Assembly (NCBI RefSeq): GCF_045037415.1
Contig: NZ_CP173438.1
DNA: 64,000 bases
Strand: one strand, 5' to 3'
DNA from: Escherichia coli
GTDB lineage: Bacteria; Pseudomonadota; Gammaproteobacteria; Enterobacterales; Enterobacteriaceae
The notes under the pieces were generated by a model, which was given only the letters and a program-made list of their open reading frames with translations, ran no database searches and had not been told where the DNA came from. Shown piece after piece: positions 55,848 to 57,032 of the stretch. The position numbers and the translations under genes are program-made. Each line of letters opens with the position of its first letter. The stretch's first letter is position 1.

Positions 55848-57032
55848 TTAATTTGCGGCTTCCTGACGATGAAAACCTCGCCACCAGACCAGTAAGTTAA
55901 CCAGGGCAATCGTCGCGCCAGCCAGACACACGCCAGCCCAACTGCCATGTTGCCAGGCTGAGGCTGAAATTAGCGAACCAGCGGCACCGCCAATAAAGTA
56001 GCTGGTCATGTAACCTGCGGTCAGGCGATTACGCGCATCAGGGTGTATTCGATAAATTACCGTCTGGTTAGTGATATGCACGCCCTGCACGGTGAGGTCC
56101 AGCACCAGGATGCCGATAATCAGCGCCAGTACGGAAGTGTGACCAAACCAGATTGCCAGCCATGAAAGTAACAGCAGAAGCAGACCGAAAGTTGTTGTGT
56201 GGTGCGATTTGCCCTTGTCGGCAAAACCGCCCGCCGGACGAGCGCCCAACGCTCCGGCAGCTCCCGCAAGTCCAAACAGACCAATTACACCATCGCTGTA
56301 GTTAAAAGGTGGAGCGGCAAGCAAAAAGGCCATTGAGGTCCAGAGAATGCTGAAGTTGGCAAAGGTCAGGCAGCCCAGCAACGCGCGGGTGCGCAGGATC
56401 TTATCGCTGATAAACATGCTGAAAACGGAACCAAGCAACTGTGGGTAGTTGAGGTGGGTTTCTGATTTCATTTGTGGCAGACCACGCCATAATGCCAGCG
56501 CCATCAGTGCCATTAACACCGAGGCAACCCAAAAGACGGTGCGCCAGCCGCCGAGGTTTGCCAGCAATCCGGCAACGGTCCGTGCGAGTAAGATCCCCAA
56601 TAGCAGGCCGCTCATAATGGTGCCAACCACTTTGCCGCGTTTGTCCGGTGAGGCCAGCGTCGCTGCCAGTGGAACCAGAATTTGTGCCACGACCGAGAAT
56701 AAACCGGTTAATGCCGTACCGAGGATCATCATCGCCAGTGACTGACTGCTGGCAGTGATTAACATACCGCCCGCTGCCAGTAAGGTCATCGAGACAATCA
56801 GGCGGCGGCGTTCAAACATATCACCGAGGGGAACAAGAAACAGCAGACCTGCGGCATAGCCCAACTGCGCGGCGGTAACAATAAAGCCCGCCGAACTGGC
56901 GGAAAGGGAAAAGTTACGCGCGATGGTGTCGAGCAATGGCTGGGCGTAATAGTTACTGGCTACCGCCAGACCGGTGGCGATAGACATCAGCACGATCAGC
57001 GCCGGGCTAAGCTCATGATTAGGTTTAGTCAT
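55848..57032 (-). CDS. ygaY: MFS transporter YgaY (intact here)
   Basis: 394-aa uninterrupted MFS-type ORF with 12 predicted hydrophobic segments. Confidence 0.85.
   Translation of the reverse strand: MTKPNHELSPALIVLMSIATGLAVASNYYAQPLLDTIARNFSLSASSAGFIVTAAQLGYAAGLLFLVPLGDMFERRRLIVSMTLLAAGGMLITASSQSLAMMILGTALTGLFSVVAQILVPLAATLASPDKRGKVVGTIMSGLLLGILLARTVAGLLANLGGWRTVFWVASVLMALMALALWRGLPQMKSETHLNYPQLLGSVFSMFISDKILRTRALLGCLTFANFSILWTSMAFLLAAPPFNYSDGVIGLFGLAGAAGALGARPAGGFADKGKSHHTTTFGLLLLLLSWLAIWFGHTSVLALIIGILVLDLTVQGVHITNQTVIYRIHPDARNRLTAGYMTSYFIGGAAGSLISASAWQHGSWAGVCLAGATIALVNLLVWWRGFHRQEAAN

Follow-up and report, generated by a model that had tools for sequence, protein, structure and literature searches.

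The major facilitator superfamily (MFS) fold consists of twelve transmembrane (TM) helices arranged in two six-helix halves with a central cytoplasmic loop. Motif A of the superfamily, G-x-x-x-D-R/K-x-G-R-R/K, lies in the TM2-TM3 loop, and the antiporter motif C, G-x8-G-x3-G-P-x2-G-G, in TM5. Escherichia coli YgaY (P76628) is classified as TCDB 2.A.1.36.3 within the YnfM (acriflavin-sensitivity) family (PMC5417439). The transport activity shown for members of this family is proton-coupled efflux of dicarboxylates/glutarate. In E. coli BL21, YnfM was reported to export glutarate in a CCCP-sensitive manner (PMC12622518), and Salmonella CuiT (STM1486), with YnfM as its closest annotated homologue, was described as a Cu importer (PMC13101709).

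The K-12 gene is entered in the curated record as 'pseudogene ygaY b2681' (NC_000913.3, 2808316..2809493, 1178 bp), and PGAP flags the ygaY CDS as 'frameshifted' in MG1655 and in the K-12-like PS200. It has been termed cryptic, nine in-frame stops having been noted between two amplicons (bioRxiv 10.1101/2023.07.10.548347; PMC10656529), was the pseudogene control in Price et al., with the Keio ygaY deletion used as neutral, and provided a 'pseudogene locus' for integration into the W3110 chromosome (PMC11566304). The curated record, the PGAP flag, and these papers agree with the statement in the earlier note that ygaY is a disrupted pseudogene in K-12. In the biological papers found, ygaY is a pseudogene of K-12 or a site for integration, and none assigns it a function. 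An intact ygaY is already on record through the curated K-12 pseudogene, the conceptual protein in UniProt and TCDB, and the identical RefSeq protein on at least 1000 contigs. The increment provided here is small and consists of the exact mechanism of the lesion, most simply slippage, and its distribution in K-12 only.

The ygaY locus and its neighborhood

The window, i.e., the whole 64,000-nucleotide stretch of E. coli contig NZ_CP173438.1 that was analyzed, carries an uninterrupted 394-aa ygaY exactly at the coordinates where the earlier note had placed an MFS gene (55848-57032). The product matched Pfam MFS_1 (PF07690) in two stretches with 141.3 bits against a cutoff of 33.4 (E = 4.6e-41), identifying it as a member of the MFS. 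The length of the ORF far exceeds chance expectation, and it opens with ATG, with zero in-frame start codons further upstream in the ORF listing of the window. A 1551-bp segment containing the gene (55700..57250) displayed 100% DNA identity with the complete E. coli chromosomes SK1144, AVS0155, AH21C062, and Esc13. In SK1144, PGAP names the identical 1185-bp CDS 'MFS transporter' (WP_000165701.1), and the exact window protein was found under that name on at least 1000 public contigs.

The genes are ordered proV-proW-proX-ygaY-ygaZ-ygaH-emrR/mprA on the minus strand (Table 1), such that ygaY adjoins the downstream ygaZH as had been claimed. The Citrobacter neighborhood was identical (nrdEF-proVWX-ygaY-azlC/azlD(ygaZH)-marR(emrR)-emrA-emrB).

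Codon 364 of the window allele (55943..55945) encodes Ser compared to Gly in each of the other eight intact alleles examined, which came from seven E. coli lineages and from Citrobacter. This residue opens the last predicted TM segment, and the exchange is probably neutral since the allele is common, the exact protein being the one found on at least 1000 contigs.

Table 1. Features of the ygaY region, with positions given in the window.
Feature	Position	Strand	Basis
emrR/mprA	54041..54571	-	ORF and SK1144 annotation
ygaH, L-valine exporter subunit	54662..54997	-	ORF and SK1144 annotation
ygaZ, L-valine exporter subunit, downstream neighbor	54987..55724	-	ORF and SK1144 annotation
ygaZH promoter, TTAAGA-17-TATAAT, in the ygaY-ygaZ spacer	55751..55779	-	scan, 10/12 matches
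ygaY, 394-aa MFS transporter CDS including stop codon	55848..57032	-	ORF listing, Pfam, SK1144 annotation
Stretch deleted in S115 (gene nt 252-270), intact in the window	56763..56781	-	alignment
Site matching the K-12 lesion (gene nt 256-269, codons 86-90, third predicted TM segment)	56764..56777	-	pairwise and multi-strain comparison
Motif A, PLGDMFERRR, codons 68-77, loop between second and third predicted TM segments	56802..56831	-	sequence and hydropathy
Candidate -10-like TATTAT (TATGAT in Citrobacter), 39-44 nt before ATG, conserved block	57071..57076	-	inferred from upstream alignment
REP pair in the proX-ygaY spacer, Rfam naRNA4 RF02564	57137..57214	-	61.6 bits vs gathering score 59.5
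proX, glycine betaine/proline ABC transporter binding protein, upstream neighbor	57224..58216	-	ORF and the 993-bp CDS of SK1144

The K-12 lesion and the distribution of broken alleles

Pairwise alignment of the window gene with K-12 displayed one 7-bp gap and 43 substitutions over 1178 aligned bases, two of the 43 being nonsynonymous (Nei-Gojobori). K-12 is short by 7 bp and ends after 88 codons; an equally intact K-12 gene, which would have refuted the earlier note, was not what the alignment showed. The window does not belong to the K-12-type pseudogenes as all 1185 nt are present and the frame is open. Placement of the gap at gene nt 255-261 (GGCAGCG, window 56772..56778) was approximate and blurred by local SNPs, and K-12 was for this reason compared with the intact alleles nearest to it.

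Ec1120 and 51008369SK1 contain a perfect 7-bp tandem repeat at gene nt 256-269 (...CTG GCGGCAT GCGGCAT GTTG...), of which K-12 keeps one GCGGCAT unit, and removal of one unit from the Ec1120 gene gave the 1178-nt K-12 pseudogene without a single difference. K-12 ygaY was therefore broken when one GCGGCAT unit was lost (x2 to x1), which would have happened most simply by replication slippage. The deletion is recent as no further decay has accumulated in the K-12 pseudogene, and its product terminates after 88 residues (…MTLLAAC-stop), within the third predicted TM segment (residues 78-96). At the matching site, the window has GCAGCGGGCGGTAT, which is without a perfect tandem repeat, and the K-12-like intact alleles have GCGGCATGCGGCAT; the allele with two GCGGCAT units also has G88C, the type of change that would have created the repeat. 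The tandem repeat was absent from the window, EDL933, SMS-3-5, NC101, and Citrobacter alleles, such that only some lineages would be predisposed to slippage of the K-12 type.

A query of 100 bp that spans the K-12 junction was matched in 5417 of 5426 complete genomes. The junction itself was present at ≥99% over the 100-bp span in 353 of the 5417, with none at 95-99% identity, and the best 60 of the 353 carriers were without exception K-12 laboratory derivatives (e.g., MG1655, C600, J53, DH5alpha, DH1, NCM3722, HMS174, and RR1). Sampled rows from the other 5064 genomes displayed a 107-bp span, i.e., the 7 bp were present, and the tandem-repeat intact allele was identified at ≥99% in 688 genomes. 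That the difference is an artefact, because of a sequencing error in K-12 or because the K-12 gene is equally intact, is exceedingly improbable as 353 separate assemblies, among them many K-12 derivatives that were sequenced independently, share the 100-bp K-12 junction at 100% identity, and the curated record and PGAP alike mark K-12 ygaY as a pseudogene.

The intact 1185-bp CDS was found in all seven non-K-12 lineages compared (51008369SK1, Z1322HEC0001, EDL933, SMS-3-5, NC101, Ec1120, and JNE25-001). Equal query and record spans were observed for 34 of the 36 non-K-12 rows of a spread sample; the remaining two, H13 and H17, were 100 bp longer, and the CDS of H13 was intact. From the junction counts and the intact sampled lineages, an intact ygaY is therefore the species norm and not peculiar to this strain, and the K-12 lesion is specific to the K-12 lineage. 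K-12 is thus not the species reference for ygaY, with ~93% of complete E. coli genomes being without its deletion and an intact, selectively maintained gene being present in all sampled non-K-12 lineages. Work in K-12, including the Keio collection, fitness screens, and use as a neutral integration site, is uninformative on the role of ygaY because K-12 lacks the intact gene. As the lesion is a single lost 7-bp unit, isogenic repair of K-12 would be a trivial edit.

A second broken allele was identified in the urinary isolate S115 (NZ_CP158441.1, L003 1297..2462), where the 1166-bp ygaY is flagged 'frameshifted' and has a 19-bp deletion. This deletion is independent of that in K-12 and overlaps the same site; microhomology at its flanks is not obvious. 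Codons 84-90 may be a recurrent deletion hotspot, affected by the 7-bp deletion of K-12 and the 19-bp deletion of S115, or the overlap may be a coincidence.

Selection on ygaY and its expression signals

The dN/dS of the window gene (Nei-Gojobori) was 0.016-0.095 against other E. coli alleles and 0.039 against Citrobacter (dN 0.046, dS 1.18). Orthologues were 394 aa with identities of 97-98% in E. fergusonii, 95-96% in E. albertii, and 93% in Citrobacter, and the length and start codon of ygaY were conserved across genera. Judged from these comparisons, purifying selection on ygaY is strong, both across E. coli and as far as Citrobacter. This constitutes strong indirect evidence that the YgaY protein is made and of consequence to the cell: a dN/dS of ~0.03, with a dS of ~1.2 against Citrobacter, would be unsustainable without selection on the protein, suggesting that it is made at least under some conditions.

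The signals upstream of the gene were sparse. The promoter scan gave no sigma-70 consensus site upstream of ygaY and its match counts were at chance level, the terminator scan likewise gave nothing upstream of ygaY with counts at chance level, and no Shine-Dalgarno sequence was evident upstream of the gene. The proX-ygaY spacer (57033..57223) is 191 bp with 43% GC and contains a candidate -10-like element and a REP pair (Table 1). Transcripts of ygaY have been detected in K-12 at levels that increase after hyperosmotic shock, with a further increase on shock in a stpA mutant that was 11-fold at the amplicon nearest proX (PMC10656529). Transcription of ygaY may therefore partly depend on proU.

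These observations raise the alternative that the ORF is intact yet silent (cryptic), for instance because it is held in H-NS/StpA-bound chromatin downstream of proU, in which case intactness would not imply a working transporter. Besides the missing consensus promoter, the missing strong Shine-Dalgarno, and the AT-rich spacer, it is consistent with the K-12 H-NS ChIP signal at ygaY in some datasets and the reported DRE-H-NS-ygaY bridge (PMC10656529), with the low K-12 transcript levels that rise by read-through from proX in the stpA mutant (PMC10656529), and with loss of the gene in K-12, where the deletion is the neutral pseudogene control of Price et al. A silent gene is nevertheless improbable given a dN/dS of ~0.03 both across E. 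coli and against Citrobacter (dS ~1.2) and the length and start codon kept across genera. YgaY would instead be made and work as a proton-coupled carrier.

The REP pair coincides with the mapped position of the published K-12 H-NS bridge that joins the proU DRE to ygaY, and the REP stretch explains the multi-copy BLAST matches (median of 6 places per genome, a few on plasmids). The spacer measured 191 bp in the window and K-12, 291 bp in Z1322HEC0001, and 452 bp in JNE25-001, and some genomes diverge past query position 1426 or 1514; this variation presumably represents REP copy-number change or small insertions. On the other side of the gene, the hexamers of the ygaZH promoter in Table 1 are those listed for a constitutive RpoD promoter in the ygaY-ygaZ interval (Shimada et al. 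2014; PMC3946193). In the table of that paper, the K-12 pseudogene is still split into two ORFs, '(ygaXY)'.

Protein family and transport direction of YgaY

Within the MFS, the Pfam MFS_4 match spanned residues 31-381 of YgaY. Hydropathy identified 11 hydrophobic 19-mers with a mean of ≥1.3 and, at residues 337-355, a further, weaker segment (1.03), which by hydropathy alone places six segments before and five plus the weaker one after a charged loop at residues 185-220. YgaY also aligned over its full length with YnfM and with the 12-TM SotB, which favors a total of twelve predicted segments. Motif A is present in a loose form, as PLGDMFERRR aligned with PLSDAIGRK of YnfM and E74 replaces the second Gly. 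By eye, the fifth predicted TM segment IMSGLLLGILLARTVAGLL has no Gly-Pro, and in view of this absence of motif C, YgaY was not filed under DHA1. The scores for the DHA1 models also placed it outside that group, with 50 bits against 200.9 for TIGR00710 (Bcr/CflA), 37.8 against 479 for EmrD, and 51.1 against 400 for Cmx/CmrA.

The search of NCBIfam equivalogs gave 25 weak matches with none near its cutoff, such as the PRK03545 sugar efflux model with 63 bits against 401. The weak full-length matches were all efflux-type (PRK03545, Cmx/CmrA, Bcr/CflA, MxcK, and EmrD), and the N-terminal half matched the symporter models GlcP 4lds (sugar) and TIGR00895 (aromatic acid). The PDB sequence search yielded weak MFS matches only, the best of which was limited to the N-terminal half; SotB 6kki aligned over residues 13-383 and EmrD (2gfp) was also matched. 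Homologue names were uninformative, as the best 120 were all near-identical Enterobacteriaceae proteins named 'MFS transporter' and the 3984-member cluster was named likewise. Assignment to TCDB 2.A.1.36 is supported by the P76628 listing, from which the window protein departs by two nonsynonymous changes against the repaired K-12 translation, and by an end-to-end alignment with E. coli YnfM (b1596; 25% identity, E = 1e-19). On a 5428-bp ENA metagenome contig, a predicted 596-aa protein (P0016) aligned with the whole of YgaY (100% coverage, 73% identity). Its score, 1089 bits, is anomalously high, and the protein may have arisen by fusion or partial duplication or from an error in assembly.

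Window ygaY would represent the ancestral intact allele, encoding an inner-membrane MFS secondary transporter of family 2.A.1.36 with ~12 predicted TM helices. Taken as a whole, the explanation by an ancestral intact allele, an MFS carrier under selection, and a slippage lesion in K-12 is very probable. It is in keeping with the earlier suggestion that the strain 'probably' retains a working transporter, to which the intact frame, the dN/dS of ~0.03, the 93% identity and synteny with Citrobacter, and motif A all point.

With respect to direction, we lean slightly toward YgaY being a proton-coupled MFS carrier that exports a small organic metabolite. Export is favored over import because the best full-length matches are efflux-type (SotB, Cmx/CmrA, Bcr/CflA, and EmrD) and YnfM is reported to export glutarate. 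The direction is uncertain since the YnfM-family CuiT is described as a Cu importer, and YgaY could be an importer for nutrient or metal uptake. MFS proteins operate in both directions, a homologue of YnfM has been described as importing Cu (PMC13101709), the N-terminal half of YgaY resembles the symporter models GlcP 4lds and TIGR00895, and antiporter motif C is lacking. Import is possible but doubtful, as it has against it the efflux-type full-length matches (SotB, Cmx/CmrA, Bcr/CflA, EmrD, and MxcK), the report of YnfM itself as an exporter (PMC12622518), and, weakly, the exporters ygaZH and emrAB as neighbors.

A more specific form of the favored export role is that YgaY could be a dedicated metabolite exporter functionally tied to its invariant neighbors, releasing osmoprotectants that ProU has imported or acting in amino-acid or organic-acid efflux beside YgaZH. 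This idea is based on the conserved adjacency and the reported rise of ygaY transcripts after hyperosmotic shock in K-12, and is very unlikely as it stands. If true, the loss of ygaY would be one hidden lesion making K-12 physiology atypical of the species.

Among known systems, WP_000165701.1 of SK1144 and other complete genomes is the same allele as the window in both CDS and flanks, with no differences. K-12 ygaY (b2681; conceptual translation UniProt P76628) is the same gene at the same locus with the same neighbors, but is frameshifted by the loss of one 7-bp unit, whereas the window allele is intact and without the tandem repeat. YnfM belongs to the same TCDB family, and the two proteins correspond in the motif A loop and at an Arg of the fifth predicted TM segment; YnfM is, however, a distant paralogue at another locus with a reported role in glutarate efflux compared to YgaY without a reported role. 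SotB/YdeA (6kki) and EmrD (2gfp) share weak full-length similarity (residues 13-383) and the 12-TM MFS architecture with YgaY, but their equivalog families exclude it with scores far under the family cutoffs.
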